This document shows, piece by piece, positions 44,293 to 50,911 of a stretch of DNA of 64,000 bases. The notes beneath the pieces are model-generated. The model was not told the origin of the DNA. It made no database searches and saw only the letters and a program-made list of their open reading frames with translations. The stretch spans positions 224,001 to 288,000 of the forward strand of contig CAWFJP010000031.1 in the NCBI GenBank assembly GCA_963816145.1, in the 5' to 3' direction. The position numbers were made by a program, and so were the translations under genes. This DNA comes from an uncultured delta proteobacterium (GTDB lineage: Bacteria > Desulfobacterota > Binatia > UBA9968). Position 1 is the first letter of the stretch, and each line of letters starts with the position of its first letter.

Positions 44293-45573
44293 ATGCAATT
44301 GAAATTAACCAGTTCATCGCCGCTTTGGCGTTCGCTGCGCCATCGCAATTACCGTTTGTATATCACCGGCCAATTGGTCTCGGTCTGCGGCACCTGGATG
44401 CAACAGGTGGCGCTAAGCTGGTTGGTCTACCGCCTGACTAAATCCGCCACTCTGCTCGGCGTGGTCGGTTTCGCATCGCAGATTCCGATCCTCGGTTTGG
44501 GCCCCATCGGCGGCGTCATCAGCGACCGCTACTCGTGTCATCGGGTTGCGGTCTGGACCCAATGCGCGGCCCTGGTCCAAGCAGTTCTGTTGGCGTCGTT
44601 GACGTTGATGGGTTGGATTCAGCCCTTGCATATTATTCTGCTGGGCGCCGCGCTCGGGGTGGTCTACGCCTTCGACATGCCGGCGCGCCAAGCGTTGGTG
44701 CACGAGTTGGTTGACACCGAGGACTTGGCCAACGCAGTGGCTCTCAATTCCTCGATGATCAACGCGGCGCGCATCGTCGGACCCGCGCTCGCCGGTCTGG
44801 TCGTCGCCAAATTCGGCGAAGGGGTTTGTTTCGTAATCAATGCCGTCAGCTACATCGCGACGATTACAGCGTTGCTGATGATGAAGCTCGCCGCGCGCCC
44901 ACCGCGCGAGACGGCGCCCTTTTCCATCAGGCGGTCATTGCTCGAAGGTTACCGCTACACGCTGGCAACCACGCCGATACGGGATCTGCTGATACTACTG
45001 GGCGTGGTCGGCGTCATGGGAATGCCCTACATGACCTTGATGCCCGTGTTTGCATCTCAAGTGCATCGCAGCGGCGCCGATACCCTAGGATTGATGTTCG
45101 GCGCCGTCGGCTTGGGCGCGCTCGTCGGCGCGCTGTTTCTCGCCCAACGCAAAAACATTATCGGCCTGGGCCGGGTGATCGTTTTCGCCGCCTTGGGATT
45201 CGGCGCGGGACTCATCTTGTTTACATTTGCACGGCTGTTTTGGCTTTCGTTATTGCTGCTTGTCGGCGTCGGCTGCGGTTGGATGGTGCTGATCGCGGCG
45301 AGCAATACGGCGCTGCAGACCCTGGCCGACGATAACATGCGCGGCCGGGTGATGAGCCTTTTCTCGATGATGCTGGTCGGCATGGCGCCGTTCGGCAGTT
45401 TGCTGGCAGGTTGGGCCGCCGATCAAGTAGGCGCTCCGTTGGTGGTGGCGATCGGCGGTGGCTTTTGCGCTCTTGCCGGGATCGTTTTCGCCCGCCAGCT
45501 GCCCCGGCTGCGCGAGGCGGCCAAGCCGATCTTGGCCGCACGCGGAATCATTCTGGAAAGCGACGTGAAGTAG
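44293..45573 (+). CDS. MFS transporter (DUF894/EntS-like)
   Basis: LRHRNYRLYITGQLVS, FDMPARQA, ALNSSMINAARIVGP, RGRVMS. Confidence 0.9.
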   Translation: MQLKLTSSSPLWRSLRHRNYRLYITGQLVSVCGTWMQQVALSWLVYRLTKSATLLGVVGFASQIPILGLGPIGGVISDRYSCHRVAVWTQCAALVQAVLLASLTLMGWIQPLHIILLGAALGVVYAFDMPARQALVHELVDTEDLANAVALNSSMINAARIVGPALAGLVVAKFGEGVCFVINAVSYIATITALLMMKLAARPPRETAPFSIRRSLLEGYRYTLATTPIRDLLILLGVVGVMGMPYMTLMPVFASQVHRSGADTLGLMFGAVGLGALVGALFLAQRKNIIGLGRVIVFAALGFGAGLILFTFARLFWLSLLLLVGVGCGWMVLIAASNTALQTLADDNMRGRVMSLFSMMLVGMAPFGSLLAGWAADQVGAPLVVAIGGGFCALAGIVFARQLPRLREAAKPILAARGIILESDVK

Positions 45574-45717
45574 GGAAACCCGTCAAGCTGAAAGCGAAAC
45601 ACTGATGATGGCGGCGAGCGGCTGTGACATAACCTGGCTAAAATGAAATCGCCCAACCGTCGGCGGAGCGAATGGAGGCTTGGGCAGATCTCATTCCGCC
45701 GATCTAGCCAGCGCAGG

Positions 45718-47007
45718 TCATTTTATCGGTGGCCGGAGGCAAAGGCTGAGCACGGCCGAGGTGAACAGCATGCCTATGAAGATGCTGAAGGAGAGGTAGT
45801 AACTCTGCGTGTAGTCGAAGAGCAGGCCGAAGAACGGCGGACCGCAGGCGGAGAAGATGCTGGTCACGAGCGAGCCCATGCCGCGGATTTTTCCCAGCGA
45901 GATGCGGCCGAAAAAATCGGCCCAAATAGTTTCCGCCAAGACCGCCGTGCCGCCCATGCCGATGCCGTAGATAAAAAAGCCAATATAGAGCGGCGCCATT
46001 CCGGGCAGTAACAGCGCCACTAACAGGCCGGCGCCTTGGAACGCGCATTTGGCCATATTGAGAATGCCGTTATCCATGCGGTCGGCGAGCGTGCCCCAGA
46101 CGATCGGCGTGCTGAGCTGCATGACTGCGATGATGCTCATCACCGAAGCGGCCACCAGGGTTGGATGGCCTTGATCGGTGACGTAGGAAAACACATGGAG
46201 ATTGAGCCCGGTGACGCCGATCTGAGCGACGCCGAAGGTGCTGGCGATGAGCCAGAAGACCGGTGTGCGCAGCGCTTCGCGCCGGCTCCACTCGACATTG
46301 TCGGCGCCGGTGCGCTTGGCGTGGCGGGTTTTTTTTGGGGTTGCGACTTCCGCTTTCACCGGCACCGGTCCGCCGTCGGGTAGCAATCCCATTTCTTCCG
46401 GGGCGCGCCGCATGAATAGCAAGGCCGGCGCGACCACCAACAATAAGGCGAACACGCCGAAGACCACCCACGCGCCACGCCAGCCGACGTACAGCATCAA
46501 GGTCGCCGCCGCAACCGGCATACAAACTTTGGCCAGGCCATGGCCCATGCCGGCGATGGCCAGGGCGCGGCCGCGCATGCGCACGAACCAGCGCGAGATC
46601 GACACATTCACTACCATGGAGCCCATGAGCGAATCGCCCGGACTGATGAGCAGCCAACGCACCAGCATGAACTGTATGAAACCCTGCGCTTGACCGAGGC
46701 AGATAAAGCCGGCGCCGGAAATCAATCCACCGGCCGCCATCAGCCAGCGTCCGCCGTAGCGGTCCATCAACGTGCCGACCACGGGCGCTGCCGCCGCGCC
46801 GATGAGGATCTCGCCGGAACGGATGAGCGAGAACATACCGCGGGAAATGCCCAAGTCGCTCGACAACGGTTTGAGAAATACGCTGAGCGTGCTCGAGATC
46901 GAAAATGCCGAAGCGATGTGGGCGAGAAAGCCGACGATGACGATAACCCAGCCGTAATAGATCGCTGCCTTTTTTACCGGTTGCTCGACCAAGGGTGAAA
47001 TGGACAT
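45718..47007 (-). CDS. MFS transporter (OFA/MCT-like)
   Basis: YYGWVIV, GTLMDRYGGR, RWFVRMRGRALA, ALRTPVFW. Confidence 0.88.
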   Translation of the reverse strand: MSISPLVEQPVKKAAIYYGWVIVIVGFLAHIASAFSISSTLSVFLKPLSSDLGISRGMFSLIRSGEILIGAAAAPVVGTLMDRYGGRWLMAAGGLISGAGFICLGQAQGFIQFMLVRWLLISPGDSLMGSMVVNVSISRWFVRMRGRALAIAGMGHGLAKVCMPVAAATLMLYVGWRGAWVVFGVFALLLVVAPALLFMRRAPEEMGLLPDGGPVPVKAEVATPKKTRHAKRTGADNVEWSRREALRTPVFWLIASTFGVAQIGVTGLNLHVFSYVTDQGHPTLVAASVMSIIAVMQLSTPIVWGTLADRMDNGILNMAKCAFQGAGLLVALLLPGMAPLYIGFFIYGIGMGGTAVLAETIWADFFGRISLGKIRGMGSLVTSIFSACGPPFFGLLFDYTQSYYLSFSIFIGMLFTSAVLSLCLRPPIK

Positions 47008-47258
47008 TCCTAGCTTGTAACAAGGTTCGCGGCAAAACTACAAGGCAACGCGGCACATGGTAAGACCGCACAAGGCGCATCTAAAGCTGTTAGTACTTGG
47101 GATATTCAATGCAAGGTCTCTGCCCCACTAGAACAACCGAATGGTCAAAGCCTACACCCAGGCCGTTGCCACTGCAGGCCGAGCACAAATAGGTTGACAG
47201 CTGCACCGTCGGTTGATACTTCTGCGGTCGACTCAGCGATTCATGCCACGATAGCACT

Positions 47259-48032
47259 ATGGAAAACCTCGGCGATAGATTCACTCTTTTCACTCAGCCC
47301 GGTTGAAGCAGTTGCCTAAGAGCGAAAGAGTTTCTTTCGAAAAAAGGCATCGACTTCATCGCGCTCGATATCTTGAACGATCCAACGGCGCTAGAGCGAT
47401 TGGGCAGGCTTGGCGTGCGCACCGTACCGGTTTTGGCCAGCGGTGATCAATACATCTTTTGCCAGAACCTGGAAGATGTCGCCGAGTTCGTCGGCTTGCA
47501 AGGCAGTGGGCATACAGCGCTCCCGCCAACTGTATTGATGACGAAATGGACCACGGTGCTACGCGCGGCGCAGCGCTATATTCGTCAACTCCCCAGCGAC
47601 CGGCTGGCCGAGCGCGCGATCGAAAATCGTGATCGCTCGCTTCGACTCTTGAGCCACCACATCTTTCGCGTCGCCGAAGCCTTCCTCGAAACCGCCATTG
47701 ACGGTGTCGAATACCGGACCAACAATGCCAACATCCCACCCGAAGACGGAACCTGCACCACCGGCGAGGAAATTGCAGCCTACGGTGACGGCATTGTTGC
47801 GCGGCTTGAGAAGTGGTGGAGCCAACTTGAGGACCGATCCTGCCAGCGACCGGTGAAAACCTTCTATGGCACGCCGCCGATGCATCAGCTTTTCGAGCGC
47901 TCCACCTGGCACTCGGCGCAGCACACGCGCCAGTTGATGGCCGTTCTCGAGCGCTTCGCTATCGAGCCCCGGGGGCGGCTCACGGCCGAAGATCTAGCCG
48001 GGCTGCCTCTGCCGGAAGGCCTGTGGGAATGA
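47259..48032 (+). CDS. Putative selenoprotein: glutaredoxin/NrdH-like domain (U-S-S-C) fused to a DinB-like domain
   Basis: ATG 47259, MENLGDRFTLFTQPG-[TGA 47304-47306]-SSCLRAKEFLSKKGIDF, in frame with the 47373 ORF (TVPV cis-Pro motif, then HHIF and WHSAQHTRQL). Confidence 0.85.
47313..47349 (+). promoter_or_regulatory. Candidate bacterial SECIS element
   Basis: tgcct-aagag-cgaaaga-GTT-tctttcg-aaaaa-aggca; apical loop begins with G about 23 nt after the UGA. Confidence 0.7.
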
Positions 48033-48046
48033 CCAGAAGAAAAACG

Positions 48047-48086
48047 CGTTCCAGTCGTTCCAAACGTTCAAGCTGTTCAAATCGTT
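48047..48086 (+). repeat. Degenerate 9-bp tandem repeat
   Basis: cgttccagt cgttccaaa cgttcaagc tgttcaaat cgtt, 15 nt after the selenoprotein stop. Confidence 0.6.
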
Positions 48087-48274
48087 AACCGAAGAAGATT
48101 GGCAATCGCCGCCTTAACCGCAAGGCGCCAAGGCAATTGATTTTGTGCCAACGCGGGAGACGGCCATTTTATGCCCAATTATCCTCTTGAACTTGATCGT
48201 TCGCCGGTGCGGGGTTGCGCGAAAGCGGCACGGTAAAACGTTTTCTCCAAGAGAGTAACCGCCGGGAGGGTCGG

Positions 48275-49741
48275 ATGGGACTGACGCAAGAAGTTGCCCA
48301 CTTTGTCGCGCGGACACGCTACCGGGATATTCCCAAAGAGGTTGTCCAACTGGCGCGCGGATTCATCCTGGACGGACTCGGCGTCGCCTTAGCTGGTTCC
48401 ACTGACGAGTGCTCGCGCATCGTTCAAGCGCAAATCCGCCAAATGAACGGCAAGGGCGAGTCGTCGATTGTCGGCACCGGGCTCGCAGCGCCGGCAGCGA
48501 AAGCGGCTCTGGCCAACGGCGTGGCCGGCCATGCGATGGATTACGACGACACCCAGCTGTCAACTTCCAAGGAAGCAGTTTACGGTCTCTTGACGCATCC
48601 GACCACGCCTGTGCTCGCCGCCGTGTTGGCGATCGCTGAGAAAGAAAAAATCTGCGGCGAGGAACTGGTTTTGGCCTATCTCTTGGGCGTCGAAGTCGAG
48701 TGCCGCATCGCCGATGCGATCAACCCACGCCACTATCAAGAGGGTTTTCACTCCACTGCGACCATGGGCGGCATCGGCGCCGCCATGGCGGTGGGCAAAA
48801 TGCTCCGGCTCAAGGAAGAGGAGCTGATTCGCACCTTGGGCATTGCCGCCAGCATGGCGTCCGGCTTGCGCGAAAACTTCGGCACCATGACCAAGCCGCT
48901 GCACGCCGGACGCGCTGCTGAGAACGGCGTGACCGCCGCCGTGTTGGCGCGCGACGGCTTCACGGCGGCGGCGAATATTCTCGAAGCCCGCCGCGGCTTT
49001 TTCAACGCCATGGCCGGCGGTTGCGATGAGAGCAAGATCACCGGGCGGCTCGGTTCGCCTTACTTCATGAAGGAGCCGGGAATTTCCATCAAGCCGTATC
49101 CGTCCGGCTCACTCTCGCACCCGGCGCAAGATTTGATTCTCGACCTGGTCAAACAGCATGATCTTGGCGCGGACGATATCGATCACATCGACGTCGGCAC
49201 CAATTCCAACGTGCCCAATGCGCTGATCTATCCGGTGCCCAAGACCGCCTTGGAAGGAAAGTTCAGCATTCCGTTCTGCATGGCGATCGCTGTCTTGGAG
49301 CGCAAGGCCGGCATCGCGCAGTTCCAAGACCTCAAGGTGCGCGACAAGAAGGTCGTCGAATTGATGAAGCGGGTGACGCTCTACGTCGACGATGAACTTG
49401 AAAAGCTCGGCTACGATCAGGTGCGTTCGCGGATTCGCATCAGACTCAAAAATGGCCAGGTGATCGAAGGGCGCTATGATGTCGCGCGTGGACACCCGGA
49501 GAAACCGATGAGTTGGGCCGAACTGGAAGACAAATTTCGCGACTGCGCCGGGCTCGTGCTGGCGGACAAGGACGCGGAAACGGCGATCCAATTGGTCGCC
49601 CGCATCGAAGAACTGAAAAGCTTAAGCCCCCTGTTCCGTGCTCTGACCAGCGCGCGCGCCAAGAGTGGTAAAAAAAATAAATCTTCTGGGATACCCGTGA
49701 AGGCGTATTCACCACCAAGGACACGACGAGCACGAAGTTAG
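48275..49741 (+). CDS. MmgE/PrpD family protein
   Basis: ANGVAGHAMDYDD, GFHST, TKPLHAG, KPYPSG, KFSIPF, RGHPEKPMS. Confidence 0.92.
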   Translation: MGLTQEVAHFVARTRYRDIPKEVVQLARGFILDGLGVALAGSTDECSRIVQAQIRQMNGKGESSIVGTGLAAPAAKAALANGVAGHAMDYDDTQLSTSKEAVYGLLTHPTTPVLAAVLAIAEKEKICGEELVLAYLLGVEVECRIADAINPRHYQEGFHSTATMGGIGAAMAVGKMLRLKEEELIRTLGIAASMASGLRENFGTMTKPLHAGRAAENGVTAAVLARDGFTAAANILEARRGFFNAMAGGCDESKITGRLGSPYFMKEPGISIKPYPSGSLSHPAQDLILDLVKQHDLGADDIDHIDVGTNSNVPNALIYPVPKTALEGKFSIPFCMAIAVLERKAGIAQFQDLKVRDKKVVELMKRVTLYVDDELEKLGYDQVRSRIRIRLKNGQVIEGRYDVARGHPEKPMSWAELEDKFRDCAGLVLADKDAETAIQLVARIEELKSLSPLFRALTSARAKSGKKNKSSGIPVKAYSPPRTRRARS

Positions 49742-49792
49742 GAGCATTGATTATCCGAAACCTTCATGTCCTTCGTCATCTTCGTGGTGAGA
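49707..49792. repeat. 9-bp-periodic hairpin repeat overlapping the MmgE/PrpD stop
   Basis: ttcaccaccaaggacacgacgagcacgaag ... cttcatgtccttcgtcatcttcgtggtga. Confidence 0.75.
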
Positions 49793-49888
49793 TATTCATA
49801 TTGACTGAAAGACTAATTCCGCGATAATGGCCCGGCCCGGAAGTAACTTAGACACGAGAGGATCTAACTGAAGGACTAGGAGGCAATC

Positions 49889-50911
49889 ATGAAAAAGATT
49901 GGCATTTACTTCGTCATTCTCACCGGGATTTTCGCCCTAGCGTCGCTGGCTGCGGCGCAAGATGCCGCGCTATTCCAGGCGGCCAGAAAAGAAGGATCGG
50001 TGGTTTGGTATACGTCTTTGGCGTTACCATCCTCGACGGCAATTTCACATGCCTTCAAGCAAAAATATACCGGAATCGACGTCGAGCTTCATCGCACGGG
50101 CTCGCAGCGGGTCCTGCAAAGATTCATGCAGGAAGCGGCGTCGGGAATTAAGAATGGCGATATCGTGCATACCTCGGATGCTGGCAATTTCGAGCTTTTG
50201 AAGGACAAAGGGATGCTGCTGAAATTTACGCCCCAGGGCGTATCCACATTCCCCGACGGCTTTAAGGACAAGGCCGGTTTTTACTATGGCATGCGGGCGA
50301 CGCTTTCCGTGATCGCTTACAATCCGAAGATCGTCGCGGACAAAGACGCACCTAAAACCTGGAAGGAACTTCTAAATTCCAAATGGAACGGCAAGATGGT
50401 TACCGCCCATCCGGGCTACAGCGGCATCATCATGACCCATGTGCTGGCGCTGGTGAATCTCTACGGTTGGGACTACTTTCGCGATCTGGCGAAAAACAAA
50501 TTGCATATCGTGCAGTCGGCCAATGATCCGGCCGGTGTCGTCGCGTCGGGAGAACGACCGGTAGGCGTGAACGGCGCGGAATATTTCTATTACAAAACCC
50601 AAAAACAGGGTAATCCGGTCAAGATCATCTATCCCAAAGAGGGCGTACCGCTCGTCGTCTCGCCAGTGGCGATTGCCAAGGACGCGCCCCATCCCAACGC
50701 GGCGAAACTCTTCACCGAGTTCATTTTTTCCAAAGAGTCGCAGCAGTTGCTGGCGGACAAAGAAGGTCTTTATACCGGCCACCCTGACGTCACCTATCCG
50801 GCGGACAAGCCGAAACTCAAAGACCTCAAGTTATTGGCGCCGAACGCCGACGAGCTCGAAAAACGCAACGCCGAGATTAAGAAACGCTTCACTGAATTCT
50901 TCGGCGCGTAG
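49889..50911 (+). CDS. ABC transporter substrate-binding protein (Fe3+/AfuA-like)
   Basis: Signal peptide, ARKEGSVVWYTS, APHPNAAKLF; first gene of a complete ABC operon. Confidence 0.9.
   Translation: MKKIGIYFVILTGIFALASLAAAQDAALFQAARKEGSVVWYTSLALPSSTAISHAFKQKYTGIDVELHRTGSQRVLQRFMQEAASGIKNGDIVHTSDAGNFELLKDKGMLLKFTPQGVSTFPDGFKDKAGFYYGMRATLSVIAYNPKIVADKDAPKTWKELLNSKWNGKMVTAHPGYSGIIMTHVLALVNLYGWDYFRDLAKNKLHIVQSANDPAGVVASGERPVGVNGAEYFYYKTQKQGNPVKIIYPKEGVPLVVSPVAIAKDAPHPNAAKLFTEFIFSKESQQLLADKEGLYTGHPDVTYPADKPKLKDLKLLAPNADELEKRNAEIKKRFTEFFGA

Follow-up and report, generated by a model that had tools for sequence, protein, structure and literature searches.

Reading frame and in-frame TGA

The DNA analysed here (the window) is a stretch of 64,000 nucleotides from contig CAWFJP010000031.1 of an uncultured delta proteobacterium. 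On its plus strand, positions 47259-48032 hold a gene that is predicted to encode a selenoprotein in which a glutaredoxin (Grx)-like redoxin heads a DinB-fold domain (Table 1; hereafter the Grx-DinB gene). Under translation table 11, the longest open reading frame (ORF) here runs from TTG 47373 to 48032 and encodes 219 aa. A preliminary description of the sequence had extended this frame to an ATG at 47259 through one TGA, and we recovered both the annotated start and the extension. ATG 47259, TGA 47304-47306 and the terminal TGA 48030-48032 lie in a single frame with exactly one internal TGA, and the read-through product comprises 257 residues. With selenocysteine (Sec, U) at the TGA, its N-terminus reads MENLGDRFTLFTQPG-U-SSC-LRAKEFL, the peptide around the TGA being FTQPG-U-SSC-LRAKEFL. 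Scanning 46950-48300 for promoters and terminators gave no convincing promoter; the two sites returned, a promoter-like one within the gene and a terminator-like one on the opposite strand, were uninformative.

Related loci were collected by scanning one genome per species, which gave 226 pattern matches and 206 stretches encoding a relative; the best 80 of these 206 were retained. TGA is the aligned codon in all 79 loci whose sequence includes the site (L053 is interrupted by a contig end), while the terminal stops of the same genes are TAG in 40, TAA in 26 and TGA in 12 cases (n=78). Since the internal TGA is fixed whereas the real terminal stop drifts, the UGA at 47304 appears to be coding. 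Peptide conservation extends to either side of this codon (F-x-L-F/Y-T-Q-P-G-U-S/T-S-C-L-R/K), and the window's frame is intact and 65-92% identical to its relatives. In the window, 15 of 38 long open frames end in TGA, which is thus not a general sense codon in this organism. On the same grounds, and because TGA also ends this gene itself, an alternative genetic code was ruled out.

Contigs from four public sequencing runs were compared with positions 47100-48100. A DNA contig from another study's run spans 47100-47662 and is near-identical, with 4 differences. Among the 40 of 110 differences listed, none falls on 47304-47306 or within the hairpin core 47323-47339; that is, a TGC or TGT misread as TGA, which the preliminary description had named as a possible refutation, did not turn up there. 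The depth of contigs from relatives peaks over the TGA and the hairpin, and in two RNA libraries the TGA is spanned by relatives' contigs, which indicates transcription only weakly because RNA libraries may also contain DNA. The RNA runs contain only 0.05-0.06 of the words of the stretch, in matches that stem from relatives, and provide no expression evidence for this organism's own gene.

The predicted SECIS hairpin

Downstream of the TGA, the predicted RNA folds into the two-tier stem-loop that had been described before. In the upper stem, CGAAAGA (47323-47329) pairs with UCUUUCG (47333-47339) around a GUU loop (47330-47332); in the lower stem, UGCCU (47313-47317) pairs with AGGCA (47345-47349). 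The 49-nt stretch 47304-47352 has a minimum free energy (MFE) of -14.3 kcal/mol, and 5 of 200 shuffled sequences fold as well. For a 66-nt stretch we obtained -22.7 kcal/mol (z -2.79; 1/200 shuffles as good), and the 17-nt core on its own reaches just -5.2 kcal/mol. The bacterial selenocysteine insertion sequence (bSECIS) model, as given in the Fig. 2 legend of the 2026 review PMC13188914, describes a loop of 3-9 nt, an upper stem of 4-16 bp, an MFE ≤ -7.5 kcal/mol, a G at loop position one or two, usually with G or U behind it, and a UGA-loop spacing of 16-37 nt. The window's hairpin agrees with every point (3-nt GUU loop, 7-bp stem, spacing 23 nt, MFE -14.3 kcal/mol).

Over 78 distinct rows the upper stem is nucleotide-invariant save for one A>G change that preserves a G-U pair. 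There is consequently no covariation to count in the core stem, as the stem never varies. We therefore compared codons in the 75 in-frame genes among 79 rows, leaving out L023, L058 and L089 (length differences) and L068 (frameshift). Codons 23-27 (K-E-F-L-S), which form the hairpin, are AAA in 74/75 genes and GAG, TTT, CTT and TCG in 75/75 each. Their synonymous entropy amounts to 0.1, 0, 0, 0 and 0 bits, compared with 0.11-2.14 bits for all other conserved degenerate codons. Outside the hairpin the same amino acids use mixed codons, Phe favouring TTC and Leu seldom using CTT.

The lower tier did not hold up in the same way. Both tiers exist in the window, but only the upper one is conserved family-wide. 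Across the family 82.8% of the lower-tier cells are paired, with compensatory change at a single pair (CG 41, UA 11, UG 9, other 17), and in many Betaproteobacteria-type loci the tier is missing or substituted, as in L054, where it is lost, and L086, which has a different lower stem. Taken together, the comparative data strongly support a predicted Sec codon at UGA 47304 with its own SECIS element at 47323-47339.

In one relative (L068:3043-3108), a single extra base just past the SECIS hairpin shifts the frame, which represents either a homopolymer assembly error or a decaying copy.

Sec machinery of the genome

The genes for Sec synthesis and insertion, whose absence would have spoken against the proposal, are all present in the window's own genome. 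selA (616 bits), selB (417), selD (380) and tRNA-Sec (74 bits) score above the curated cut-offs and lie on contig C30, where selA, selB and selD adjoin each other (562492-566803) and tRNA-Sec follows about 10 kb downstream (576761-576851). The selD gene contains one in-frame TGA and is probably itself a selenoprotein gene.

On another contig of this genome (C14), we observed a candidate stand-alone glutaredoxin-like selenoprotein of 77 aa with the motif YTQPG-U-GPC (L102:1489-1722). Its two-tier hairpin (-20.9 kcal/mol, z -4.23; 0/200 shuffles as good) has the same GUU loop, made from the same GAG-UUU codons, at an equal distance from the UGA as in the Grx-DinB gene. This ORF looks like a single-domain relative of the fusion's head.

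Homologues and database entries

With HMMER, 1.84 billion cluster representatives were searched exhaustively; this yielded 1087 matches at E ≤ 0.001, the best 150 of which were classified. In this set, 67 representatives cover the site, 66 with C..C at positions 16/19 and one with S..S; 52 are N-truncated, with implied starts at residues 20-56 and a complete C-terminus, and 31 are fragments. The TGA thus takes the place of the first Cys of a glutaredoxin CxxC motif, as had been proposed, and the Pfam alignment to PF00462 runs across it. The residues P14, G15, C/U16, S18, C19, K23 and E24 reach 90% conservation or more in alignments of 51 and 59 sequences.

The expectation that annotation pipelines would truncate the gene was borne out. 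A word-index search found 3683 proteins at E ≤ 0.001. The best 120 of them have 202-238 aa, mostly 219, and none reaches the UxxC motif; not one of the 15 aligned among these 120 extends N-terminal of residue 20. Database names encountered for the family were 'hypothetical protein' or 'glutaredoxin'.

Domain architecture and fold

Across the TGA, residues 9-66 match the Pfam Glutaredoxin model PF00462 (E 1.1e-12; 48.3 bits, cut-off 22.9). Among 51 family members, 50 match Glutaredoxin and 39 match DinB_2 (PF12867). No model of NCBIfam release 20 reached its cut-off for either Sec or Cys forms (the window protein, three Cys homologues and one Betaproteobacteria-type Sec form); the best for the window protein were the YruB-type model TIGR02196 (42.4 versus 88.55) and NrdH TIGR02194 (36 versus 85.75), and the UXX-star Grx-like model NF041212 gave 38.6 versus a cut-off of 66.

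An AlphaFold2 model built with 59 sequences (predicted local distance difference test 95.4, predicted template modelling (TM) score 0.92) shows a thioredoxin fold in the head, with strands 8-12, 33-37, 58-61 and 64-67 and helices 17-28, 42-50 and 71-77. U16 stands immediately ahead of helix 17-28. The C-terminal part consists of four long helices (90-110, 128-148, 169-189 and 208-232). Foldseek searches against the PDB matched the head to glutaredoxin, NrdH and BC3987, and the helical part to 6iz2 (DR0053; probability 1.00, TM on target 0.85, root-mean-square deviation (rmsd) 2.9 over 156 columns), YfiT 1rxq, YizA 2qe9 and the mycothiol-dependent maleylpyruvate isomerase 2nsf. A family profile searched against PDB sequences agreed, matching residues 8-87 to the Glutaredoxin chains 7c10 and 7c12, BC3987 (3zij, 3zit) and NrdH, and residues 87-220 to 6iz2 at E 2.8e-4. 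The earlier DinB assignment therefore holds by fold and by the DinB_2 matches of the family. A GST-like whole chain was ruled out: GST/CLIC matches gave TM 0.25-0.34 and rmsd 10-17 Å, and only the domain order is alike.

Both His motifs pointed out in the preliminary description, HHIF (H133, H134) and WHSAQH (H218, H222), are present. In the 59-sequence alignment G204, H222, R224 and Q225 are invariant, while conservation of 90% or more is seen for R126, H134, W186, E213, R214, W217, H218, Q221 and the tail G-L-P-x-P. In the model, H134 lies in helix 128-148, and H218 and H222 lie in helix 208-232; H134 with H218-x3-H222 is a putative counterpart of the YfiT metal triad. In the head, P57 of the motif R-T-V-P-V is at least 90% conserved over the same sequences and presumably occupies the cis-Pro position of the glutaredoxin fold. 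C68 and C195 are conserved in close relatives of the window protein, not family-wide. Altogether, there is strong support for a UxxC redoxin whose attacking residue is Sec and which is joined, in a constant orientation, to a DinB-fold domain bearing three conserved His residues.

Distribution and phylogeny

Among the 80 loci, 30 (L021-L051 without L041) are 69-92% identical to the window protein and come from genomes labelled Binatia, Deltaproteobacteria, Thermodesulfobacteriota, Chloroflexota or Syntrophobacteraceae. L041 is labelled Candidatus Udaeobacter, and the remaining loci mostly Betaproteobacteria or Burkholderiales. In a sample of the window's own phylum, 3/301 genomes match at E ≤ 1e-20, the window's included; the other two matches are 35-39% identical and contain one TGA each. 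Genomes labelled Binatia, Thermodesulfobacteriota or Deltaproteobacteria contain copies 86-92% identical, but no more than three of the 301 genomes of the own-phylum sample match, and the only other genome of the window's family has a copy just 35% identical. Inconsistent labels, a patchy distribution, transfer or mis-binning (contamination estimate 6.72%) are possible reasons for this mismatch.

In the order of G002, one of five Burkholderiales-type genomes examined below, 36/301 sampled genomes match (35/300 without the unpublished G510). They give 52 match rows, 41 with one in-frame TGA anywhere in the match and 11 without, one of the latter being a partial match off the site; leaving out G510, the numbers are 38 and 10. 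Up to four copies occur per genome in this order. Several Burkholderiales-type genomes (e.g. G467, G311 and G542) carry two to four paralogous copies, most with an in-frame TGA, which suggests diversification of the family inside one genome.

A quick maximum-likelihood tree of residues 58-257 was calculated from 52 Cys forms and 51 N-truncated forms, the window protein being labelled with the latter group and truncation serving as a proxy for Sec. It requires at least 21 label changes, 9 of them forced by well-supported branches, versus 34.9 with shuffled labels. Cys forms and presumed Sec forms are thus interleaved on the family tree, as far as the proxy reflects Sec, and for this reason the family is a good case for studies of Sec/Cys exchange.

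Gene neighbourhood

The flanks of the window's gene (44293-47007 and 48215-50911) encode two MFS transporters, one of them divergent, a PrpD/MmgE-family protein and a solute-binding protein. Judged by their predicted products, these neighbours suggest no functional link, and just one neighbouring ORF recurs in related loci (a 9-locus cluster).

We surveyed the neighbours of the 80 loci by tblastn with four neighbour proteins (selA, selB, mnmA and NUDIX). The 30 loci named above have none of the four within 3 kb. All such neighbours are confined to L052-L100, where mnmA lies upstream in 38 loci and a NUDIX gene occurs in 21. selA is found downstream on the same strand in 28/80 loci and selB in 22/80, all of Betaproteobacteria type. 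In 18 of the 28, selA starts no more than about 600 nt away; one or two genes intervene in the other 10. Downstream sequence is shorter than 1 kb in five loci without selA. In 16 loci, mnmA and the selenoprotein gene are separated by a candidate ORF of about 195-263 aa without a Pfam match (L065:2155-2946; cluster exemplar L062:2146-2733), which L086 does not have.

In G002, mnmA, the Grx-DinB gene, selA, selB, a thioredoxin reductase (TrxR)-like gene and tRNA-Sec follow each other on the minus strand without large gaps (L108:2585-9564, Table 1). The TrxR-like product is a 301-aa pyridine-nucleotide disulfide oxidoreductase with a CADC motif; its best NCBIfam model is thioredoxin-disulfide reductase TIGR01292 (245.8 bits versus a cut-off of 343). 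Such a gene follows selB in 5/5 Burkholderiales-type genomes examined (G001-G005). The orthologues are 60-70% identical and stand between selB and tRNA-Sec in G001, G003 and G005; in G004 the orthologue is located at the expected selB end on its contig. G001, G003, G004 and G005 possess a second, more distant homologue elsewhere (31-42% identical; G002, the source of the query, was not included).

All five genomes have a TGA-containing selD and tRNA-Sec. With the formate dehydrogenase models TIGR01553 and TIGR01591, TGA-containing matches were found in G001 only, and all matches in G002-G005 are without TGA. Judging from these two models, the Sec machinery of G002-G005 is apparently not kept for formate dehydrogenase. 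In G001, a formate dehydrogenase alpha gene appears as three consecutive pieces, two of them with TGA (contig C15:6372-9415), which suggests a probable Sec codon plus frame breaks, possibly assembly errors.

Table 1. Features of the Grx-DinB gene in the window and of the corresponding block in G002
Feature	Stretch	Position	Strand	Basis
Predicted selenoprotein CDS, 257 residues + stop, UGA 47304 read as Sec	window	47259..48032	+	tblastn alignments over residues 1-257, TGA included, for most of the 80 loci
Start codon ATG	window	47259..47261	+	in-frame Met 13-16 codons ahead of the TGA in most related loci
Predicted Sec codon UGA (U16), opening the U-S-S-C redox motif (47304-47315)	window	47304..47306	+	conserved TGA, Cys in homologues
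ORF of 219 aa with TTG start, reported by gene callers instead	window	47373..48032	+	mostly 219 aa among the 120 best database proteins
Conserved putative SECIS core, 7-bp stem + GUU loop	window	47323..47339	+	folding, invariance, bSECIS model
Lower hairpin tier of this lineage, enclosing the core	window	47313..47349	+	folding
Glutaredoxin/NrdH-like redoxin domain, residues 9-66 by Pfam	window	47283..47456	+	PF00462, PDB matches, AlphaFold2; in the model the thioredoxin fold continues to about residue 77
DinB/YfiT-fold helical domain, residues 88-257	window	47520..48029	+	Foldseek, profile match to 6iz2, DinB_2 in family
Conserved His codon H134	window	47658-47660	+	59-sequence alignment
Conserved His codon H218	window	47910-47912	+	59-sequence alignment
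Conserved His codon H222	window	47922-47924	+	59-sequence alignment
mnmA	G002, L108	8413-9564	-	
Grx-DinB gene	G002, L108	7533-8303	-	
selA	G002, L108	5923-7332	-	
selB	G002, L108	3926-5926	-	
301-aa oxidoreductase (TrxR-like)	G002, L108	3008-3913	-	
tRNA-Sec	G002, L108	2585-2675	-	

Alternative explanations

The Sec-dependent redox domain that had been proposed is borne out by the TGA in 79/79 loci, the Sec/Cys pair, the fit to the bSECIS model and the Sec machinery of the genome. From these lines of evidence we are close to certain that this is a real Sec-encoding gene with glutaredoxin-DinB architecture, and a genuine selenoprotein gene at 47259-48032 is, with high probability, the best explanation of the window's copy.

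Several observations count against this interpretation or parts of it. The support for Sec insertion is at the sequence level. The conserved stem shows no compensatory base change, and the RNA constraint rests on the invariance of synonymous sites. The RNA-library contigs that bridge the TGA stem from relatives, and such libraries may contain DNA. On the protein side, the window protein has no Pfam DinB match, even with residues 88-257 alone at E ≤ 10. A narrow C-terminal profile of 14 Sec-form sequences retrieved no DinB structure from PDB sequences; all its matches, designed helical proteins and DNA polymerase II, are at chance level (E ≥ 0.015). The equivalence of H134, H218 and H222 with the YfiT triad is a putative one, drawn from the fold match and from what is known of YfiT. 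Finally, the window's copy is not beside sel genes, and its genome has no close TrxR-like copy (best 33-34% identity, elsewhere), so that the link to the reductase is one of gene order alone, in another lineage.

If the TGA were a true stop, the gene would begin behind it, at TTG 47373 or an earlier non-canonical start, the 15 codons upstream would be a leader or non-coding, and the hairpin would be an unrelated regulatory structure. Gene-caller output matches this picture, all of the best 120 database proteins being 202-238 aa long, and nothing contradicts it at the protein level. However, the glutaredoxin fold would then lose its first strand and its active site, although the Pfam alignment spans the TGA and the upstream peptide is conserved; moreover, an invariant TGA contrasts with the varying true stops, and full-length homologues have Cys exactly at this position. 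We consider a true stop extremely improbable. Scarcely better are the prospects of read-through without selenium, by near-cognate Trp or Cys insertion or another code, with the hairpin as stimulator. Structured RNA behind a stop can promote read-through, and the assignment of Sec derives from sequence rather than from a selenium measurement. But the genome holds a complete Sec machinery, the hairpin follows the bSECIS model point by point, the aligned residue is the Cys of a CxxC redox site, i.e. a classical Sec/Cys pair, TGA is an ordinary stop in the window, including the gene's own end, and in Burkholderiales-type genomes the gene forms one block with selA-selB; this reading is very improbable. 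The frameshifted relative L068 could hint that the window's gene is likewise an assembly or sequencing error or a decaying pseudogene. Given the same TGA in 79 loci of independent assemblies and in an independent run's contig, and an entire frame that is intact and 65-92% identical to relatives, the chance of this is negligible.

A different question concerns function only, namely whether the protein is an accessory of selenium metabolism that handles selenide, selenite or a Se-S intermediate for SelD and not a thiol transferase or reductase of general use. Compatible with this are selA and selB downstream on the gene's own strand (28/80 and 22/80 loci), the G002 block from mnmA to tRNA-Sec, and the lack of TGA-containing matches to the two formate dehydrogenase models in 4/5 such genomes. 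On the other hand, a main client selenoprotein would likewise adjoin sel genes; sel clusters linked to formate dehydrogenase are the usual case of such a client. The window's copy and the 30 loci related to it lack selA within 3 kb, Cys forms are common, and two to four copies in some genomes are easier to reconcile with an enzyme that has diversified in its substrates than with one step of trafficking. We regard an accessory role as unlikely.

Proposed function

The comparison strongly supports the prediction that SelB and tRNA-Sec, recruited by the mRNA hairpin 47323-47339, decode UGA 47304 as selenocysteine. For the Sec-dependent enzyme itself, the following scheme can be envisaged. U16 would act as the attacking nucleophile and form a selenenylsulfide with C19, and the Se-S pair would be re-reduced by a thioredoxin-reductase-type flavoprotein or by glutathione. 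The DinB domain would bind a divalent metal, at which a thiol or electrophile substrate is bound and activated, with the redoxin arm supplying a nucleophile to this site or recycling it. The protein would thereby work as a Sec-dependent thiol transferase or reductase in its own right, a catalytic scheme that we put forward tentatively, as somewhat short of an even chance. NrdH-type redoxins are reduced by thioredoxin reductase, which makes a dedicated reductase plausible for the fusion protein; from its position in the block, the TrxR-like gene is a plausible candidate for this role. The DinB-family proteins YfiT/BstA and Mst are thiol S-transferases according to excerpts of PMC4360819, and for the DinB-type domain we infer a thiol-transferase activity.

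A bolder version appears rather unlikely to us as a whole. It would see here a new selenoenzyme class, in which the selenolate of the redoxin arm is delivered to, or ligates, a DinB His3 metal centre. The gene would be the main reason why many uncultured soil and freshwater Burkholderiales keep their Sec machinery, in one transcription unit with selA, selB, a dedicated TrxR-like recycling enzyme and tRNA-Sec. Independently of that, since no Sec-type formate dehydrogenase was found in 4/5 block-bearing genomes, the Grx-DinB protein may rank among the chief clients of the Sec trait in these soil and freshwater bacteria.

The family matters for annotation, as it is large and its Sec forms enter databases only without their active site. 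It joins two well-studied folds of thiol chemistry, glutaredoxin and DinB, through selenocysteine, and in one lineage selenoprotein, Sec machinery and a candidate reductase are gathered in a small block open to experimental test.

Relation to known systems

A Sec-containing glutaredoxin (PF00462, UxxC) is listed as a bacterial selenoprotein in excerpts of PMC13188914 and PMC9312934, and the parts consulted of the Sargasso Sea and Global Ocean Sampling surveys (PMC1088965, PMC2398784) contain 'Grx' and 'Grx-like' UxxC families. The Grx-DinB protein has the same Pfam domain and the same UxxC Sec position. Unlike in these families, however, the redoxin heads a 257-aa protein with a DinB/YfiT domain. 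The marine survey entries may be N-terminal reads of the fusion. 'DinB' does not occur in either review (0 occurrences in PMC13188914 and PMC9312934), nor do maleylpyruvate, mycothiol, YfiT, bacillithiol or PF12867 in PMC13188914. Neither a DinB domain nor a Grx fusion is named in the excerpts of the two reviews and the two surveys, sequence supplements not covered; the fusions mentioned in the consulted part of PMC2398784 (2008) are Prx/PP2C, UGSC/Unknown_1, Prx-like and SelD fusions. Full-text searches joining selenoprotein or selenocysteine with DinB returned only unrelated papers in the portions displayed, and DinB does not occur in a 2009 survey of glutaredoxin domain combinations. The Grx-DinB family, which is widespread in soil and freshwater, was not found in the published selenoprotein lists searched.

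With the DinB/YfiT superfamily (thiol S-transferases YfiT/BstA and Mst; structures 6iz2, 1rxq, 2qe9, 2nsf) the helical domain shares the four-helix bundle, at the TM score of 0.85 given above for 6iz2, and the placement of conserved His residues, the second of the long helices having one and the last an H-x3-H pair. The chemistry described for the DinB family in excerpts of PMC4360819 is thiol-dependent, too. Known members, by contrast, consist of one domain or carry other fusion partners, and the thiol they use is free bacillithiol, mycothiol or glutathione; a redoxin fusion or a link to selenocysteine is not described for them in the parts of the literature searched. The window protein also lies below Pfam detection for DinB_2.

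For residues 8-87, NrdH-redoxin and BC3987 (1h75, 3zij/3zit) are the closest solved sequences and folds, and the likeness to NrdH fits the TrxR-like gene of the Burkholderiales-type block. The window protein differs from NrdH by its low score (36 bits versus 85.75), by its motif U-S-S-C and by not being a stand-alone protein. It also differs from the UXX-star Grx-like selenoproteins, whose Sec is located three residues before the C-terminus, whereas here it is residue 16 of 257.

A formate dehydrogenase gene beside selA-selB is the known form of a client-linked sel cluster. In the Betaproteobacteria-type loci, the selenoprotein gene is likewise located directly upstream of selA-selB on the same strand. 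However, the client is the Grx-DinB gene, the block adds a TrxR-like gene and tRNA-Sec, and the window's own copy is not so placed. Hence, a known Sec redoxin head is found here in an undescribed fusion and, in one lineage, as part of an undescribed sel-linked gene block.

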